From: Octopus vulgaris
Taxonomy: Eukaryota
Assembly (NCBI GenBank): GCA_951406725.2
Contig: OX597835.1
Location: forward strand, 35,650,001-35,714,000
Length of the DNA: 64,000 nucleotides
Reading direction: 5' to 3'
This document shows positions 5,676 through 64,000 of this stretch, piece after piece. Position 1 is the first letter of the stretch, and every line of letters begins with the position of its first letter. The position numbers and the translations under genes are program-made. Below the pieces are notes generated by a model. It had not been told where the DNA came from. It saw only the letters and a program-made list of their open reading frames with translations, and made no database searches.

Positions 5676-5856
5676 GCGTATTTACATGCATACATCCATA
5701 CATGCACGCGCGTACGCACACATACACACATGTATATAATTTTGAAGTTTATTTCTCAGCACTGAAAAATTATGGCATTTTGTATTGGAATCCGTTCATG
5801 GAAACAATGCGATCGAAGACAGAAAAATAGGTAACTGGTATATATGCACATTTCAA

Positions 5857-6087
5857 GGCGGCGAGCTGGCAGAATCGTTAGCATGCCGGGCGAAAAGCTT
5901 AGCAGTATTTCGTCTACCGCTACGTTCTGAGTTCAAATTCCGTGAAGTCGACTTTGCCTTTCATCCTTTCGGGGGTCGATTAAATAAGTACCAGTTACGC
6001 ACTGGGGTCGATATAATCGACTTAATCCGTTTGTCTGTCCTTGTTTGTTCCCTCTGTGTGTAGCCCCTTGTGGGCAATAAAGAAATA
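5857..6087 (+). mobile_element. tRNA-derived SINE with Meta-like central domain (MetaSINE-type), full length
   Basis: tRNA-like head ggcggcgagctggcagaatcgttagc, central gtcgactttgcctttcatcctttcggg..gtcgat..aagtaccag; ~20-bp TSD ggtatatat(g/a)cacatttca at 5837 and 6088. Confidence 0.85.
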
Positions 6088-6179
6088 GGTATATATACAC
6101 ATTTCAAGAGATATTGCCCTTTCATCAGCACCACATCCAAGCCATCAACTATTCACCAACGCTTAGACTACTACTACTT

Positions 6180-13516: not shown

Positions 13517-13901
13517 TATTTCTTTATTGCCCACAGGGGGCTAAACATAGAAGGGACAAACAAGGACAGATAAACGGATTAAGTCGATTACATCGACCCC
13601 AGTGCATAATTTGTACTTATTTAATCGACCCCGAAGGGATGAAAAGCAAAGTCGACCTCGGCGGAGTTTGAACTCAGAACGTAACGCTGGACGAAATACC
13701 TATTTCTTTACTACCCACAAGGGGCTAAACACAAAGGGGACAAACAAGGACAGACAAACGGATTAAGTCGATTATATCGACCCCAGTGCGTAACTGGTAC
13801 TTTTTTAATCGACCCCGAAAGGATGAAAGGCAAAGTCGACCTCGGCGAAGTTTGAACTCAGAACGTAACGCTAGACGAAATACCGCTAAGCATTTCGCCC
13901 T
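13517..13901 (-). mobile_element. MetaSINE-type SINE, 5'-truncated, tandem-duplicated body
   Basis: Two head-to-tail body copies; 13-bp TSD tacaatctatatt at 13504 and 13902. Confidence 0.85.
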
Positions 13902-14228: not shown

Positions 14229-15103
14229 CTAGCAGAATTGCCCGGCGATGCTCGGGGCTGAATTGCTTGAAAGTACTGTTAATGATTGCACTGAATTATG
14301 ATGATTATTCAGGCAAATATTGATATAAGTTTACGGTGGGAGATAAGGACTTAACGATCAAACGTGTGCCATTGCATTGTTTTGGGGGAACCAAATTTCT
14401 AATGAGCATTATAGGGGCACCAACTTTAAGTTTGAGAATGTGTGGTGGTAGTCCGGGGGGCTCAAAGGAATTGAGTACCTCTATTGGATAGTTGATGACG
14501 TCCTCTGGGTCAGGAGTTGTATCGATAGACTTATATACATAGACTTCCCCAGGAATGATTTTTTGCATTTCATCATTAATATGGTGAACAGTTTTATTCC
14601 TCGGGGCCAGAATAGCCCTTTGGCCAATCCAATCCATATTCTGATAATTAGCTTGTAGATCTGGGAACACTGCATCTCTGAGATCAGAAGGCGTTTTAAC
14701 AATGGTACAAATGGAATCGATGGCAATATTACCATTTTCATCCCCTGGTATTTTGCCTTCGCCAAGTTGAGAGTTAAAAAGGTCGAGTTGCGTCCCCTAG
14801 ACAGTCTGTACCAGGAATAGCTGGATATTGATGGAGTTGAGGGTTAAAAAGGTCGAGTTGCGCCCCCTAGACAGTCTGTGGTTTATGTTTCTGATTCTCG
14901 ACCCCATGTCAAATTTATCGATTTTTTTCAGAACTGGGGAAACTTTTCAAAATTTTCGCTGCGTTAGTTTTGAATTATGACATTGGGCTATGTGTGTGTC
15001 AAGTTTCATCAGAATCGGTTGAAAACCGTGGTCAGAGTGAGGGTACAACCTAACAGACACACAGACACGCACACAGACAAACTGCCGTTTATATATAGAG
15101 AGA
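14229..15103 (-). mobile_element. Internally deleted Helitron with both ends
   Basis: 5' TCTCTCTATATATAAAC at 15103, 3' hairpin cccg-agcatcgc-cggg then CTAG at 14229, inserted between A and T; carries a helicase fragment and a 44-bp internal duplication (14766/14836). Confidence 0.9.
14305..14670 (-). pseudogene. Helitron RepHel PIF1-like helicase fragment
   Basis: RAILAPRN..V..IN, LNSFEPPGLPPHILKLKVGAPIMLIRNL..CNGTRL are hallmark Helitron helicase motifs. Confidence 0.92.
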
Positions 15104-19988: not shown

Positions 19989-20023
19989 GTTTTACATTTC
20001 GAGCCTAGCTCTTCTTCGGAAAC
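19989..20023 (-). ncRNA. Minimal hammerhead motif (U4C core)
   Basis: Minus strand gttt CCGAAGA A GAGC-TAG-GCTC GAAAT GTA aaac. Confidence 0.6.
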
Positions 20024-20639: not shown

Positions 20640-20644
<5 letters not shown>

Positions 20645-21100
20645 ATATAATTAGGGTTCAGCGACGATTAGCTTCACCACACACCGAAGTTTAGAAATAG
20701 CAGTCAAAATCCTAGCTATTCTTTCTACTTTAAAGGGAGTTCCCAGGAAAACCAAAGCACTTGAAAACAAATATTTGTGAAATATGTGAAATAATTGAGA
20801 TACGATTATTTATGATTATGGAATCCTACGCTGAAGAGACGAAAATAGTCGGGTAAGGTATGATTATTTATTATTTATGCTTTATAGTGGCTTAATTCCG
20901 AAACGTGCGTCCGTAGGCAACGTATTATAGAATGATTTTCGTCATTTTTTCCCCTTTTGCCTACGTGGTTTGTTTTCAAGTGCTTTAGTTTTTCTGGGAA
21001 CTCCATTTAAAGTAGAAAGAATAGCTAGGATTTTGACTGCTATTTCTAAACTTCGGTGTGTGGTGAAGCTAATCGTTGCTAAACCCTAATTATATAGTAT
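20640..21100. repeat. 132-bp inverted repeat enclosing a hammerhead (PLE fold-back unit)
   Basis: Arms 20640-20771 and 20969-21100 are near-perfect reverse complements; 197-bp spacer. Confidence 0.9.
20825..20917 (+). ncRNA. Type I hammerhead ribozyme motif, fully canonical core
   Basis: cctacg CTGAAGA G...C GAAAC GTGC GTC cgtagg: perfect 6-bp stem I, G10.1-C11.1, ACG/CGT stem III, GUC triplet; predicted cleavage after 20911. Confidence 0.8.
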
Positions 21101-22382: not shown

Positions 22383-22384
<2 letters not shown>

Positions 22385-22500
22385 GCGTAAGCACATAAAT
22401 GTAAAGCAAGGTGGAAAACTTTTAACAAAACTGTTCGACGAACAGGAAAGTGAAACTCTGAGTAACAGCTTTTGTTATATTTCTGCTGCCTTAAATAAAG
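22383..22500 (+). mobile_element. PLE pLTR fragment family C with HHR motif at 22431-22468
   Basis: ctgt TCGACGA ACAGGAAAGT GAAAC TCTGA GTA acag; homologous to 34030-34268 and 42212-42356. Confidence 0.65.
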
Positions 22501-23549: not shown

Positions 23550-24320
23550 GCCGCGACCAGGATTTCGAGACCCAGTCTCAATACCTGGCCCGCCTGTTCA
23601 GGCTTCGAGGATACCCACCTACCCTGGTCTTGAACGCCCTCGCCCGCGCTCGTCGCATCCACCGCACCACCGCCCTTTCTCCTTCCAATCACCCATCACC
23701 CAACCGCACCCCCTTTCCCCTCCTTTTCCCCCCCTCTACTCTACCCCTTCGTCGGAAGATACTTCGTGCCTTCCGTCGTCTCCAGCTCGATTCCACGACT
23801 CACCGCATTTTTCTCCAACCCACCCCTATCCTCCTTCAAACGAGCCCGGAATCTACGCGACCTCCTGGTCCGTAGCACCCTCCCTTCTTCCCCCTCGGCC
23901 CCACTCGGATCCTTCCCGTGCTCCAGATCCCGCTGCAACTTCTCCCCCTTCATCACCCACACCACTGCTGTCACCGGTTCCAACCGGCGAACTGTACGTA
24001 TCAGGCATTCTTTTACGTGCACCTCGTCTGGACTCATATACTGCATTAAATGCAACCTCTGCGGAATGCTGTATATAGGACAGACGGGACGCCAGTTGTC
24101 AGACCGATTCGCCGAACATCTGATTGATGTTCGTCTACCCTCCGATTCTCCCGTCGCACGTTACTTCCGCTCGGCCAGCCATTCCCCCGATGACATCTCG
24201 GTGTTTGGTCTTGCCCCACACAACGGCTCTCCACAATCTAGGCTTCACTTGGAGCATCGGCTCATATTCCTTCTACAGACTCTAACCCCACACGGACTCA
24301 ACACAGCCCCCTCCTCTTAG
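23549..24320 (+). pseudogene. PLE (Neptune-type) RT thumb plus GIY-YIG endonuclease, 5'-truncated, one frameshift
   Basis: LFRLRGYP thumb motif, then FKRARNLRDLLV, C..RC linker, FTCTSSGLIYCIKCNLCGMLYIGQTGRQLSDRFAEH...LEHRLIFLLQTLTPHGLN. Confidence 0.92.
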
Positions 24321-29447: not shown

Positions 29448-29574
29448 TCGACCCCGAAAGAATGAAATACAAAGACGACCTCGGCGGAATTTTGACTCAG
29501 TAAACGCCAAGACGGACGAAATGTCGCTAAGTAATTTACCTGGCATGCAAACGAATCCGCCAGCTCATCGCCTT
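29448..29574 (-). mobile_element. MetaSINE-type fragment, degenerate
   Basis: tcgaccccgaaagaatgaaatacaaagacgacctcggcggaattt...gccagctcatcgcc. Confidence 0.7.
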
Positions 29575-29741
29575 GATGGTATTAGGAAATAATGATTGAG
29601 TTTTTGTTCGTTTCCAAAAGCGGCGGACAGACAGACACGTTGGGTTATAGAACAAAATTCCTTGTGGAATTTGTTCTAGGTCTCTTCCACGGAGCCACTT
29701 TACCTTCAAATTGTTGAGATTAATAAAACGATGTACTGGAG

Positions 29742-30018
29742 GGAAATGTTGGATAATCTGTCTGGCACTATTTATTCGATGTCCTTGCGCTCTGAATTTT
29801 CGGTTGGTTGATTTAATCTGCCACCCGGTGTAATAACACCTCTGGGTACGCTGTCGTCATTGACACACTTTAAAAGACGATGAATTGGAGTAAATGTTAG
29901 ACTATCTGTCTGGCAAGATTTGTTCGATATTTTTGCGCTCTGATTCTTCGGTGGTTCATTTAATCTACCACCCCGTGCAATAACACTCCTAGGTATCCTG
30001 TGGTCATTGGCACACTTC
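29742..30018. repeat. Diverged ~148-bp tandem duplication
   Basis: Two colinear units aaatgtt.ga..atctgtctggca...tttaatct.ccaccc...tcattg.cacactt. Confidence 0.8.
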
Positions 30019-34029: not shown

Positions 34030-34268
34030 CCGGAGTAAACACATAAATGTAAAGCAAGGTGGGAAAAGAGTACTCAAATACCAGGGGTTGAGTAATATGC
34101 TTTATTTAAAAACAGCAGAAATTCAACAAAACCTGTTACGCTGAGTTTCACGTTCCCGTTCGTCGGATAGTTTTTGTTAAACAATTTCTTTTAACAAAAA
34201 CTGTCTAACGAACGGGAACGTGAAACTCAGAGTAACAGGTTTTGTTGAATTTCTGCTGTTTTTAAATA
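34030..34268. mobile_element. PLE pLTR family C fold-back with an HHR motif in each arm
   Basis: 78-bp arms 34103-34180 and 34191-34268 (4 mismatches), 10-nt spacer; HHRs at 34133-34170 (-) and 34201-34238 (+). Confidence 0.8.
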
Positions 34269-34387
34269 TATATATATACAATACATATTTAGACATATAC
34301 ACACGCGTATACCCAGGGATATTTTATATATTATGCTGTATACATATATATACAGCATAATTTATGTTTATAAATATATATACACTC

Positions 34388-34786
34388 GTGGTTGTGTGGT
34401 AAGAAGCTCGCTTCTCGACCACATGGTTCAGGGTTCAATCCCACTGCGTGGCACCTTGGGCAGGTGTCTCCTACTATAGTCTCGGGTCGACCAAAGACTT
34501 CTGAGTGGATTTGGTAGACGGAAACTGAAAGAAGCCCATCATATATATATGTATGTATATATTTGTGTGCGTCTGTGTTTGTCCCCTCACCCGCCATCAC
34601 TTAACAACGGATGCTGGTGTGTTTATATCCCCGTAAATAGTCGTTCAACAAAAAATACCGATAGAATAAGTACTTGGCTTACAAGACTATGTCCTGGGGT
34701 CAATTTCTTCGACTAACACCCTTTAAAGCAGTGCTCCAGTATGGTCGCAATCAAATGACTGAAACAAGTAAAAGAATAAAAGAATA
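34388..34786 (+). mobile_element. SINE family B
   Basis: Colinear with 6656-7140. Confidence 0.85.
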
Positions 34787-34872
34787 TATATATGTATAAA
34801 TACATATATATATATATGTGTGTGTGTGAGTGTCTGTGTGTCTGTGTGTGTGCATGTATATATATATATATG

Positions 34873-35601
34873 TGTGTGGCAGGATGGATACTGAGATCCT
34901 TGAAGATAAGAGACCAAGAAAGTATGTTGACCCTGTGGAGAACCTTTAGTTTCAGCACCCTGGACTACTGTTCCCAGTTATGGTCAGCACATCGTGCCAA
35001 ACTAATAGCGGAGCTTGAAGCAACCCAACGCCTCTACACTAAAAAGATTGAAACAGTGCAGTCAATGAGCCATAGGGAGAGTCCGAGAAAACTACAGCTT
35101 TACTCATTGGAGCGAAGGCGTGACAGATACGCAATAATATACATATGGAAAATCCTAGAAGGGCTAGTACTTAACTTTGGCATTGAGTGTTATACAAATG
35201 CCAGAACTGGCCACCATTGCATTGCACCAAAGGTACCGTCCAGTCCATCTAAATTCAGGAGCAGAGGCTGCAATAGTCTAGGGTTCAAAGGCCCACAGCT
35301 CTTCAAAGCTCTGCCACAAAAATTAAGAAATTTGCATAAGATGGAAGTAGATGTCTTCACAAAGGAACTAAACATCCTCCTCTCCACAATGCCAGATAAA
35401 CCAACGGTCCGACATGAGATACAAACAAGAGTTGCGGAATCAAACTCAATTATACATCAAATGAGCCAGAAGATGGGAAAAAGGCACATATAGGTGTGGT
35501 GATGGGAAACACCCAGGTTCAGGAAGTCAGAAAGACCATGGGGCTGCTCCAGCATGACCACATGACCCATGGCTGAAACGAGTAAAAGTGAAAGAGTAAA
35601 A
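34873..35601 (+). pseudogene. CR1-group LINE 3' end (RT C-terminus plus 3' UTR)
   Basis: GWILRS...LDYCSQLWS...LEATQRLYTKKI...LQLYSLERRRDRYAIIYIWKILEG...PQLFKALP...PDKP; the tail resembles the SINE B tail. Confidence 0.88.
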
Positions 35602-35836: not shown

Positions 35837-35880
<44 letters not shown>

Positions 35881-35884
35881 AAAG

Positions 35885-36153
35885 TAAAATACAAAATGGG
35901 ACAAGATCAGAACATCCGGACAACTAGGTGATACAAAAAGGGACAACAAAACATCCAGATAGACGATACAAAAAAATACGGACGGGTCATTCGAAGCCTT
36001 TTACCTTCAGTCAAGGACCGGATCATCCTCGTATTTTCGGCTAAATGACCCATCCGTGAATTTTTTGTATCGTCTACCTGGATGTCTTGTTGGCTCTTTT
36101 TGTATCACATAGTTGTCCGGATGTTTTGCGTTCTTGTCCCATTTTGTATTTTA
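35885..36153. repeat. ~108-bp inverted repeat, probable PLE fold-back
   Basis: Arms 35885-35991 and 36044-36153, 52-bp spacer, embedded in (TA)n. Confidence 0.85.
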
Positions 36154-36154
36154 T

Positions 36155-36223
<69 letters not shown>

Positions 36224-39054: not shown

Positions 39055-39392
39055 AAAATATTTTTATATAAAACAATTCAGTACCAGTTTCGGTCATTGA
39101 GACTTTTTCAACAGTAAGTATGGAAAACAATTAAATTTTGGAAAAATTTTAATGAAAACATTTTTAATGAAATCTTGTGGGTTCGAGGTCGTTCGAAGTC
39201 ACAAGAGTAAACAAGAGAGACAGAGACAAGCAGAAACAAGGAAAATGACCATTGCATTTGGATACAATGCAAATATTCTTTTAAAACAGTTTTCATATAA
39301 TTTTTCCAAAATGTAATTGTTTTCCATACTTAGAGTTGAAAAAGCCTCAATGACCGAAACCAATACTGATATGTTTTTTATAAAATTATTTT
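39055..39392. repeat. ~110-bp inverted repeat with a U3:A8 HHR motif in each arm
   Basis: Arms ~39055-39167 and ~39281-39392; TTGAAAA AG(T/C)C-TCAAT-GACC GAAAC at 39079-39114 (-) and 39333-39368 (+). Confidence 0.75.
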
Positions 39393-42211: not shown

Positions 42212-42356
42212 TACCAGAGTAAGCGCATAAATGCGAAACAAGGTGAAAGAAATAGTACTCGAATACCAGAGGTAGAGTAATATGGTTTATTGAAAAGCAG
42301 CAAAATTATCACAAAAACTGTTACTCAGAGTTTCATGTTCCCGTTCGTCGGATAGA
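42212..42356 (-). mobile_element. PLE pLTR family C with HHR motif at 42318-42355
   Basis: Minus strand ctat CCGACGA ACGGGAACAT GAAAC TCTGA GTA acag. Confidence 0.65.
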
Positions 42357-43845: not shown

Positions 43846-44198
43846 GAAGGCGGCGAGCTGGCAGAAACGTTAGCACGCCGGGCGAAATGCTTTGCGGTAT
43901 TACGTCTGCCGTTACGTCATCCTTTCGGGGTTGATTAAATAAGTACCAGCTACGCAATGGGGTCGATATAATCGACTTAATCCGTTTGTCTGTCCTTGTG
44001 GGCAGTAAAGAAATAGGTTCTTCGTCTGCCGTTACGTTCTGAGTTCAAATTCCGCCGAGGTCGACTTTACCTTTCATCTTTTCAGGGTCGATTAAATAAG
44101 TACCAGCTACGCACTGGGGTCTATGTAATCGACTTAATCCCTTTGTCTGTCCTTGGTTGTCCCCTCTATGTTTAGCCCCTCGTGGGTAGTAAAGAAAT
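43846..44198 (+). mobile_element. MetaSINE-type SINE with tandem-duplicated body
   Basis: 15-bp TSD aggttacagcagtga at 43831 and 44199. Confidence 0.9.
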
Positions 44199-44888
44199 AG
44201 GTTACAGCAGTGATTGTCCGTGAAAGAGGTGAGTGATCGTAAATCGTTGCAAGTACAGAGATGTATGCAGCAACTGCCAGTTGACTGTGTCCTGGAACAT
44301 AAAATTTTGTGGAAGATGTGACTCCAGTGACTCCTATAGAAAGTTCAGATCGCTCTTGTTTACTCCCCAGAAGAGTTTTTTCTAGAAGACAGGCTACATG
44401 GAATAATCCTACCGTACAATTTTGCAACAATGATTTTGTGTTCTCTGTCACATTACCACAGCGAGAAACATGAAACAACTCTCTAGAAAAACATAGCTAA
44501 GCTCTCAGAGCGAACGATGAACTTCGCTTGCAGCGAATAAAGGCAGTACGAACAAAGACGTGAGTGGACTCGTATTTCACGGCGTGAATGATCATCATTG
44601 CCATCTGCTTGAAGGATATCAGTATATCGGACACAACCGTATCTTGTGGTATGGTACGAATGGTGCTATTGTTAGAATGGCGAGTCTAAAGTCCATAATT
44701 GCAGGCAACACTGCTCATAGATCGTAAATAGATAACAGAAACACGGAAACGACAGGAGGGGAAGTTGAGCACCATTCTAGACCATCTTGTAAGCCGGAGA
44801 ATAAATCGTTCTCTCGTATAATTTTCTGGCAGTGAATTGAAATTTGCTTTCTCCATTTGAACAACGGTCGATGACATTAAATATTATG

Positions 44889-57372: not shown

Positions 57373-57625
57373 AGTTGAATGATATTTCGACGGCTAGCCT
57401 GTCTTCGTCGAGTTCAAAATGAAAAGTGATAAAAATTCAAAATTAGAGAAATTCAAATCCAAGATATGAACGAGAGCAACCAGTGTTCACACGCTGTTGG
57501 AATGACATCATCAGTCTTCAAATTTCAATTTCATAACAGGCAAAAAGAAAAAGAAGAGAAACAGAGGAAAAAAGAAAGAAAAGGGAGAAGAAGAAGAATA
57601 TTTGATCAAAGAGTTTTGTGTAATT

Positions 57626-57936
57626 AACACTTATCGCCAAGCTAATATGGCAGTAAATAAATATAGGACGAAAGCTGCCGTTGATTACCTCCAAGAGGCC
57701 ATCGCTAGAGGAGATGGTCAGCAGCGATGCCTGCTGAGTTTGGCTACTCTTCATTGATAAAGGGCAAATACCCTGAAACATGTCTGCGGATGCTTGACCA
57801 CCAAGGGGAAGCGGCTGACCTCCCCTGTTCGAATGAATACATGTTTGTGTGTCATATAGCTAGCCTCTTGGAACTAATCAACGGCAGCGTTCGTCTTATA
57901 TTTATGGACTGCTGCATTAGCTTGGCGATAACTGTT
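57626..57936. repeat. 74-bp inverted repeat enclosing a hammerhead
   Basis: Arms 57626-57699 and 57863-57936. Confidence 0.85.
57748..57790 (+). ncRNA. Type I hammerhead ribozyme motif, U3:A8 compensatory core
   Basis: tcttca TTGATAA AGGG-CAAATA-CCCT GAAAC AT GTC tgcgga: palindromic ACATGT stem III, GUC triplet, stem I 5/6. Confidence 0.72.
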
Positions 57937-58178
57937 GATATCCAGTATCACTGTCGTATTCTCCTTTAGGGAGACTTAGAAATAATATTTCTAGTTTTGT
58001 GTAAAGTTGATAAAATCCTTCTGTCATTTTATTCATTCCTCCAGGGCGTGATGTTAATAACCCACAAACGTATTTCTCCTGATGCATTTTGCTGACTAGA
58101 ATTGTAGCATACACACACAGACACACACAGACACACACACACAGCCACACACACACACACACACAAACACATATATAC

Positions 58179-58397: not shown

Positions 58398-58640
58398 AAA
58401 ATCCGTGATCATGGAATGAAAAATAATTTTACAAAACGAAAGAATATCCAATAATATAGCCCGGATGTGGCTAGAATCTGTATTCTTGCAATATTCTTTT
58501 GTTTTGTAAATTTACTTCTCATCTCATGATTACGGTCTTTTATGATGACGTCATGTTCTCATTCTTCTATTAAAAAGATGCGTAAGAAACAGCTGTTATG
58601 AGCTGGCAATCATCCATCGTCCGTTATTATTCATTTGATT
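58398..58640 (+). mobile_element. Fold-back PLE fragment with degenerate HHR at 58537-58602
   Basis: Inverted arms 58398-58447 and 58491-58541, then ATGATGA...GAAAC AGCT GTT atgag. Confidence 0.45.
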
Positions 58641-62399: not shown

Positions 62400-63137
62400 C
62401 AGGGGTTGGACAAAATAATGGTAACGCCTTAAAATTTCAAACAAATTTATTTTAATAAGGAGTAGGACCGCCTTAGGCAGTAATTACAGCTTCAATTCTA
62501 CAAGGTATGGTCTCGTAAAAGTTTGAATTGTTTCAATTTTTATCAATTCTTCAGATAAAACAGTCTCCAGTTCTTGTAGTGATGATGCTGGAGGATATCG
62601 ACTCCTTACTTATTTTTCTAAAATGTACCATAAATGTTCAATGATATTGAGATGTGAGGACAGATAAGATGTTCAACTTCACCAGAATGTTCCTCGTGCC
62701 ATTCAGTAACAACCTTAGCTGTGCGAATTGGTGCATTATCATCCTGAAAGATTGCGTTCCCCTCCAGAAACAGTTCCGCAGCCATAGGATGCGCTTGATG
62801 AGATAAAATGCTTAAATAGTCTTGACTATTAATTCTGCAATGAAGGAAAACCATTGGGTCGGCGGATTTCCAAGATATAGCCCCCGCCACCCAAACCATA
62901 ACAGTTGGATGAAGGCGGTCTGGGTCAAATGCTTCTTTTGGCTGTCTCCACAGATATACTCGGCCGGTGGTCGGAAATAAGGTAAAGAATGATTCGTCCG
63001 AAAAAATAACATTCTTCCACTGCTCTAGGAACCAATTCTGGAGGTTTTTAATCCACTCTAAACGCTTTGCAACATTTGTTTTTTGGAAATAGTGTTTTTC
63101 TGATTGCAGATCTCCCGTGAAATCCGACTTTGCAGGC
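62400..63137 (-). pseudogene. Tc1-like transposase remnant with one TIR
   Basis: TA|CAGGGGTTGGACAAAATAATGG terminus; MVW..AIS...INSQDYLSIL...IFQDDNAPIRTAKVVTEW catalytic region, frameshifted. Confidence 0.9.
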
Positions 63138-64000
63138 CATCACTACTGTAGTGGTGTTGCCAGGTAGAAAGTGATAACTGTGATCGACAGTTTCACTTCG
63201 AAAATGACATTCCACCACAGAATCTTGAAGGCCGACCGCTAAAGTCGAATTGTAGAGGACACTTTGAGAATTCTGTTCCTTAGATTAGAAATGAACTCTA
63301 TATTTGAGTTGAAATAAATTTTCATTCTCTCATAATTTTCAGCCATGGAGCGAGTAACAAAATATCAGACCAGACCTCCAAGGAATGGACGACTTAACAA
63401 GATAAAGCAATAAAATTTACAAATAAAACCTTCTGGACAAACAAAACGAAATATAATTTTATTGAGTTTCTCGCACATAATCAGACACCTCGGAGGATGA
63501 AGAAGAAGAAGAAGGAGGAGGGGGAGGAGGGGGAGAAGAAGAAGAAGGAGGAGGAGGAGAAGAAAAAAGGAAAGAAGGAGAAAGCAAATGAGTAGAAAAA
63601 GGATGTGGAGGAAAAAGAAGAAAACGGTGGATGATAAGAAGAGAAAATAATTAGAAAAATAAAATTAAGAAGGATGAAGAGAAAGCGAAATCGTTGAAGG
63701 AAGAGGAAGAAGAACAAAAGGATATCACACCAAGATTCAGACATGTTGATAACGACGATCATGATCATGATGATTATGATGAATTTCATGTAATTTAAAA
63801 TTAAGATGCGTTTGAGTATCCATATATCAATACATAATGCGTAGGCACACGCGCACACATACTTGCATACATACATACATACATACATACATACATGCAT
63901 ACATGCATACATACATACATACATACATATATATATATATATCCGCCACAAGTGCATAGACACGTGTATCTATAGAGGCATAAGTTAGCATAAACTTATA

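Follow-up and report, generated by a model that had tools for sequence, protein, structure and literature searches.

The locus at 57626..57936 of the window, by which we mean the whole stretch of 64,000 nucleotides of Octopus vulgaris DNA analysed here, raises the question of how a hammerhead ribozyme motif came to lie between the arms of a long inverted repeat, and whether the ribozyme had a part in forming it. The locus is a 369-bp insertion of an abundant hammerhead repeat, likely pasted in by the enzyme of a Penelope-like element (PLE) that likely primed two cDNAs off a staggered cut, one from each strand. The shape and the core variant of this insertion (57624-57992) are already in print, and the copy is an ordinary decayed insertion. 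The recurring ends and variable inner junctions of its family are nevertheless data on the formation of inverted repeats and tails by PLEs, a step left unvalidated in the in vitro PLE paper (PMC11167929).

At the coordinates given in the first-pass annotation, 64 of the 74 arm positions of the inverted repeat match, and the loop in between contains a compact hammerhead motif (57741-57795). Local alignment widened the arms to 57623-57699 and 57863-57939 (66/77 positions matching) around a loop of exactly 163 nt, BLAST of the arm pair gave an E value of 4e-18, and the predicted fold had a z score of -14.4, which was equalled in 0 of 100 shuffles. Arms and loop were thus read correctly. The unit extends further than annotated, as a 12-bp target-site duplication (TSD) and a 53-nt tail (57940-57992) had been overlooked. 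The left TSD copy, AGTTTTGTGTAA (57612-57623, plus strand), is identical to the right one (57993-58004, plus strand), forming a perfect direct repeat. This 12-mer occurs twice in the whole window, which consists of AT-rich, microsatellite-laden DNA, and no more; a 12-mer repeat of any kind was obtained in 29 of 20,000 flank shuffles. The sequence to the left (57420-57611, no strand assigned) is part of a host repeat that resumes at approximately 57993-58090 in copies without the insertion. Among the contigs of four runs on 57420-58100, 57470-57555 was joined to 57993-58024 in nine of the 15 joints listed out of 61, and five of the nine resumed at exactly 57993; the empty site is known from these paralogous copies of the host repeat, not from an orthologous locus. 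The direct repeats and the host-repeat joints therefore define the insertion as 57624-57992, with a length of 369 bp. Two further samples contain contigs that read across the left junction (X4 record 24, 57512-57652, three differences) and across the private deletions described below (X3 record 16, 57806-57935, one difference). An assembly artefact is thereby excluded, and the insertion occurs in more than one sample. In agreement with the first-pass annotation, no similarity was found between the unit at 57626..57936 and the unit at 20640, and none to anything else within the 64-kb window.

Within its limits, the insertion is composed of two copies of one family sequence in head-to-head orientation. 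The left arm (57624-57699, minus strand) is an inverted, 5'-truncated copy of the 3' part of the family. On the outside it stops where other family copies repeatedly end, a position referred to here as site 1. The adjoining junction (57700-57711, strand undefined) probably consists of six more nucleotides of the inverted copy and then six nucleotides of the same family segment in sense, as read from this one copy. The sense copy (57712-57992, plus strand), delimited by contig comparison, is 5'-truncated and 281 bp long, and comprises the hammerhead, the right arm and the tail. In the alignment, the right arm (57863-57939, plus strand) is that section of the sense copy which is present a second time in the inverted copy. 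The tail (57940-57992, plus strand) is one-sided: its 53 nt of family sequence end at approximately 57992, site 2, and are absent beside the left arm. Both 3' ends point outward, the tail equals the stretch between site 1 and site 2, and the "loop" is the extra length of the longer copy. The family segment present at 57700-57711 is missing from the sense copy before 57863, as a comparison of the window with loose-end letters at 57705 and 57863 indicates, and private deletions are located in the sense copy near 57834, 57863 and 57985 (the family differs at 57833, 57863 and 57984). Arm and tail are bridged in contigs of other copies (X10 record 6, 57866-57987; X2 record 24, 57878-57986). The end of the tail, 57977-57992, is a near-palindrome for which loose-end letters suggest an 18-bp palindrome in the family, and an AT-rich palindrome at site 1 resembles it.

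The family was present in 8/8 public runs with five organism labels (A-E), at 396-2665 contigs per run; these runs, all of them contigs, were chosen from 24 listed. Summed against single-locus depth hints at thousands of copies, but depth is not copy number, and only abundance is claimed here. A run guessed to be RNA, a label that is itself a guess, contributed 111 family contigs; the search of sequencing runs listed no RNA run with the sequence, which has no bearing on expression. At least approximately 335 nt of family sequence were seen. Contigs ending at 57623 with heterogeneous flanks were found in two runs (26 and 22 contigs, agreement 0.51 and 0.47), and this family end mirrors 57939; family depth drops after approximately 57990. 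In 11 and 19 contigs the family runs on upstream of 57712, and the sense copy is therefore 5'-truncated. The arm-to-sense junctions of other copies lie at 57791, 57798 and approximately 57830. After insertion, both arms of the present copy drifted from the family and stem I gained a private mismatch. Of the 11 arm mismatches, the right arm deviates from the majority letter of the family in six and the left arm in four, while one is ambiguous; both arms share one minority letter (57628/57934). These letters would fit a single template followed by independent decay. At 57889 and 57896, either letter is frequent among family copies, and these two mismatches are compatible with two templates; for 57673/57889, the two variant tables contain conflicting rows, and this position is left unassigned.

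The motif at 57741-57795 is a type I hammerhead on the plus strand, as are all its parts, according to the pair table and covarying variant rows, and cleavage is predicted. The pair table places an outer helix I and then a UAC bulge (57745-47) before helix I (57748-53/57785-90), of whose 6 bp five pair in this copy, including one wobble. The core TTGATAA (57754-57760) contains U3 at 57754 and A8 at 57759; helix II (AGGG/CCCT, 57761-64/57771-74) carries the loop CAAAUA; GAA at 57775-77 belongs to the hammerhead core; and helix III (ACATGT, 57778-83) is palindromic and loopless in the pair table. From the motif position, the predicted cut falls after C17 at 57784. The core thus reads N3-UGA-N7-N8-A9 ... 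GAAA ... UH with positions 3 and 8 paired. Instead of G10.1:C11.1, the family copy has A57761:T57774, and G at 57761, found in 10-39% of the depth, results in a wobble. A compact motif of equal score arose in 1 of 5000 loop shuffles, as judged by a self-made descriptor that was defined after the motif had been seen. Local Rfam scans gave no hammerhead match at the motif, their sole hammerhead match being HH9 with 13 bits on the left arm (threshold 52 bits). In the whole-window Rfam scan, dominated by microsatellite miRNA, there was no hammerhead at the motif among the matches listed (150 of 480), and metagenome scans for the hammerhead motif returned 0 matches.

The first-pass annotation had described the U3:A8 core as compensatory, and the variant rows bear this out: U3:A8 is the norm of the family, not the product of chance decay. 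The 36 variant rows at or above 10% include none on 57754-60, 57775-79 or 57782-86 in 4/4 runs; rows do exist for 57751 and 57761, from contigs spanning the core, and U3 and A8 also appear in the junction letters of another copy. An absent row is not proof of identity, because 57959 is a majority variant in one variant table and has no row in the other. Paired changes were observed at 57751/57787 (G:C or A:U), 57750/57788 (U:A or C:G) and 57743/57793 (G:C or A:U); 57780 and 57781 swap together, which keeps the palindrome, and 57761 is A or G opposite U. The family therefore displays a helix I of 6 bp, a helix II of 4 bp and a short palindromic helix III with covariation in rows that are unphased, except that one loose-end consensus (X10, 57797) connects two paired changes. 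These covarying stems show the ribozyme fold, with its U3:A8 core, to have been retained as subfamilies spread, so that nature provides a ready construct for a 3:8 rescue assay. With the family letters at 57950 and 57954, a stem of 9 bp would be complete (57881-89/57949-57), a putative sign of structured RNA. In the present copy, stem I has a U.C mismatch at 57751/57787 plus a wobble, and the T at 57751 is essentially private (G + A account for 10068 of 10084 depth in X2). Given this mismatch and the drift of the arms, the copy is predicted to cut poorly. Predicted pairing is alike with and without the left arm (0.93-0.99 for helix II, no more than 0.17 for helix I), and the ribozyme is thus neither formed nor obstructed by the arms.

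In its helix lengths, the CAAAUA loop, the UAC bulge and the U following helix I, the family ribozyme agrees with the canonical type of Schistosoma and not with the minimal form of PLEs (PMC4209133, PMC2632901). With the canonical hammerhead of Schistosoma mansoni (PMC2632901) it shares loop 2 CAAAUA, the UAC before helix I and the U after it, which are loop-loop contact positions, whereas U3:A8, A10.1:U11.1 in place of G10.1:C11.1 and a shorter 3'-strand internal loop set it apart (PMC2632901). The min-HHR variant of the S. mansoni Cercyon PLE (PMC4209133) has the same core swap, and its report also describes pairs of ribozymes on opposite strands at distances of 100-700 bp. However, min-HHRs are described with a helix II of 7-8 bp, a helix I of 4-5 bp and a bulged base before G10.1 (PMC4209133), in contrast to the canonical helix lengths and the mostly A10.1:U11.1 pair of the family studied here. 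Publications on U3-A8 date from 2011 and 2014: it has been reported in approximately 1,300 Schistosoma motifs (PMC4209133), and U3/A8 are natural covariants with activity in vitro (PMC3088659). We found no paper pairing C3U with G8A.

The insertion has a head-to-head inverted, 5'-truncated copy, a one-sided tail and a short TSD with an empty site, and this layout matches the published signature of PLE insertions. An inverted 5'-truncated copy with a one-sided tail is described as general among PLEs, including Naiads that lack canonical hammerheads (PMC8557442), and 8-10 bp TSDs and microhomology junctions accompany inverted truncated copies (PMC3846280); Pen2a_Av is built alike, and its TSD measures 9 bp (PMC3846280). 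With the reported pLTR insertions of endonuclease-bearing PLEs (PMC8557442 Fig. 2; Pen2a_Av, PMC3846280; PAc, PMC11167929), 57624-57992 shares the head-to-head copy, the single tail, the short TSD, junction microhomology and a hammerhead near the 3' end. It differs from them by the absence of an ORF in this copy and by a tail of 53 nt and a TSD of 12 bp, compared to 30-40 and 8-10 bp in the published examples (PMC8557442, PMC3846280).

In the mechanism proposed here, the GIY-YIG endonuclease of a PLE would nick both target strands 12 nt apart. The right 3'-OH would prime at site 2 (57992), from where the RT would copy approximately 300 nt, passing the intact ribozyme and ending at 57712. The left 3'-OH would prime at site 1 (57938/9), and this second cDNA would halt after approximately 82 nt at a small RNA hairpin, before microhomologies of 2-5 nt join both cDNA ends. 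Twin priming of this kind appears likely from the end positions; a search of the literature on Penelope twin priming yielded nothing on the topic by title or abstract start. The copy is unbroken through the cut site, and its template was therefore uncut or re-ligated. The 12-nt junction is made of both strands of a short family hairpin, 13 nt of which are absent from the sense copy. The hairpin-derived junction together with this gap suggests that both cDNAs stumbled there, in one copy in which a later deletion is possible. The layout is repeated at 34030-34270, where the tail of one arm is approximately 73 nt longer.

The same family and carrier could also have produced the inversion from one cDNA that either snapped back to prime itself or switched templates, with an antisense template as suggested for the Penelopes of rotifers; self-priming on an antisense template is what the authors of the Pen2a_Av report favour (PMC3846280). 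The junction 57700-57711 carries both strands of one family segment, like the palindromes that were read as self-priming in that report (PMC3846280). Nevertheless, we regard an origin from one cDNA as unlikely: self-priming alone does not account for a pair of outer ends that recur in the family and border a TSD copy each, and the anole PLE protein cuts both target strands in vitro and extends them from two internal starts, which bound the tail (PMC11167929). The first-pass annotation had proposed a direct role of the ribozyme, in that cleavage makes an RNA end near which priming or fold-back happens, tying the inverted repeat to the cut site. Hammerhead motifs are in fact enriched among the fold-backs of the window, the junctions of other copies at 57791 and 57798 are only 7 and 14 nt 3' of C17, and a short inversion sits inside the ribozyme. 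The comparison of breakpoints with the cleavage site that the annotation had suggested argues in the opposite direction, since the cut is spanned unbroken: the nearest breakpoint, the 5' start, lies 73 nt 5' of C17, the inner arm end 79 nt 3' of it, and the outer ends 155 and 208 nt 3' of it. Furthermore, the distance from cut to end is not the same in every family, being 34 and 107 nt at 34103, the junctions listed scatter over 57726-57864 with none listed at C17, and self-priming at a sense 3' end would yield tail-to-tail instead of head-to-head repeats (PMC3846280). Dead hammerhead mutants of the anole PLE insert equally in vitro (PMC11167929), and Naiad PLEs without canonical hammerheads show the same inversions (PMC8557442). 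Priming near the cleaved RNA end is therefore very improbable for this locus.

Long inverted arms and a TSD would also be expected of a MITE or another DNA transposon whose TIRs enclose a hammerhead by chance. In that case the TIR should abut the TSD, but on the right the arm and the TSD are 53 nt of family sequence apart; in addition, the family extends upstream of 57712 and the inner junctions vary among copies. Because the tail is one-sided, an origin as a DNA transposon is largely refuted, and we assign it a very small probability. An even smaller one is left for selection on the hairpin as a holder or regulator of the ribozyme within a transcript of the host. The very stable predicted fold and the occurrence of the insertion in more than one sample would agree with selection, but 11 of 77 arm pairs are broken with both arms affected, the stem I mismatch is private, and the predicted pairing of stems I and II keeps the values given above whether the arms are present or not.

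Priming of two cDNAs by a PLE enzyme, which we prefer, can be combined with different parent RNAs. This RNA may have been a non-coding unit of the retrozyme type, which is moderately favoured, or, less likely, the end repeat of an autonomous PLE. Retrozymes consist of units of 150-450 bp that are repeated in tandem and carry canonical type I hammerheads (PMC7229834); a proposal derives them from PLEs as non-autonomous elements (bioRxiv 10.64898/2026.07.22.740005). The family has in common with non-LTR retrozymes, as described in these two sources, the 6-bp helix I, the 4-bp helix II, the palindromic helix III, the abundance, a length that with at least approximately 335 nt falls inside the 150-450 bp range and, putatively, the lack of coding capacity. 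It differs from them by the U3:A8 core and by the form of 57624-57992, a sub-monomer inverted insertion; this copy is shorter than a unit. No clear tandem joint of the unit was present among the joints listed (15 of 61, plus 4). There is no RT or GIY-YIG ORF in this copy, none was connected with the family, and family sequence is readable for at most 30 nt upstream. The open frame of 85 codons at 57712-57966 has no Pfam match, and a coding reading of it was rejected, its two phmmer matches being unnamed singletons with tandem-repeat translations scored by summed stretches. We found no paper on this family in a search that covered few subscription journals and no supplements, and the octopus retrozyme literature contains no such family by title or abstract start. 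A more detailed reading can be put forward tentatively, with somewhat less than even confidence: a non-coding retrozyme with a full-length hammerhead of the Schistosoma type, its U3:A8 pair fixed in several species, would have been copied either uncut or as a re-ligated circle by a Penelope enzyme. Priming would start from each strand of the target, at a pair of constant sites within the RNA, with a small RNA hairpin stopping one cDNA and being skipped by the other. If this is true, thousands of scars would make the unresolved mechanism of Penelope integration readable from genomes. Elsewhere in the window, an open frame at 23634-24320 resembles a PLE C-terminus (weak GIY-YIG match, E value 0.006, below the cut-off) and was not linked to the family of 57624-57992.

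The recurrence of hammerheads in fold-backs, on which the first-pass annotation had built its proposal, holds for the window. Out of ten local inversions, three pairs of SINEs, which have a cephalopod appearance in this window, were set aside by hand. Six of the remaining seven fold-backs contain the motif (p = 2.5e-5), although 0.88 would be expected to. If a match at 20761 that is likely due to chance is left out, the count is 5/7 (p = 3.5e-4; expectation 0.8-0.9 over both counts), and with the SINE pairs kept it is 5-6/10 versus 1.8-1.9 expected (p = 0.002-0.014). The scanner scored this likely chance motif at 20761 and missed an evident one at 20831-20911 with a decayed helix II; six of 11 compact matches lie outside any fold-back. 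The motif is in the loop at 20640, as at 57626, but in the arms at 34103, 39055 and 20087, and the idea that the arms cage the ribozyme is not supported; at 58398 the motif straddles an arm end. As the location varies by fold-back, placement in loop or arm depends only on the truncation of each copy. Fold-backs and hammerheads co-occur because the hammerhead lies near the 3' end of elements that insert head-to-head, as reported for the published cases (PMC8557442, PMC3846280, PMC4209133). The scanners detected no hammerhead in the fold-back at 35878-36160, which lies in (TA)n. Around the other six of the seven fold-backs, several of them in (TA)n, there was no exact non-simple direct repeat of at least 8 nt.

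Further hammerhead sequences were noted in the window. A second U3:A8 family at 39055-39392 has head-to-head arms with a core in each (39111, minus strand; 39336, plus strand). Another hammerhead family is represented by three copies (34030-34270, 22383-22500 and 42214-42355); at 22383, nothing but the far tail, inverted, adjoins a sense copy whose end is the near site, in keeping with two fixed ends. The hammerhead at 20831-20911, in the loop of the 20640 fold-back, combines a long decayed helix II region with a perfect 6-bp helix I. Hammerhead-like motifs scoring 13-15 are located at 1856 (plus), 6128 (minus), 16840 (plus) and 58523 (plus), and the one at 6128 has a helix II like that of the hammerhead at 57741-57795, but a C3:G8 core. 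Compact hammerhead repeats at 20019, 22594, 27168, 45290, 56562 and approximately 57270 are copies of a single repeat or of two related ones, and several of them have C in place of U4.

Other mobile or repeated sequences in the window include a Helitron-like Pif1 helicase fragment (14305-14796, minus strand, E value 1e-14), a DDE_3 transposase fragment (62618-63139, minus strand, E value 0.0015) and a LINE-like frame with no Pfam match (34780-35493, plus strand). A repeat family with a tandem unit of approximately 184 bp was found at 13517-13900, 43847-44202, 5855-6096 and 29448-29576, and a tandem pair of 150 bp at 29720-30017.
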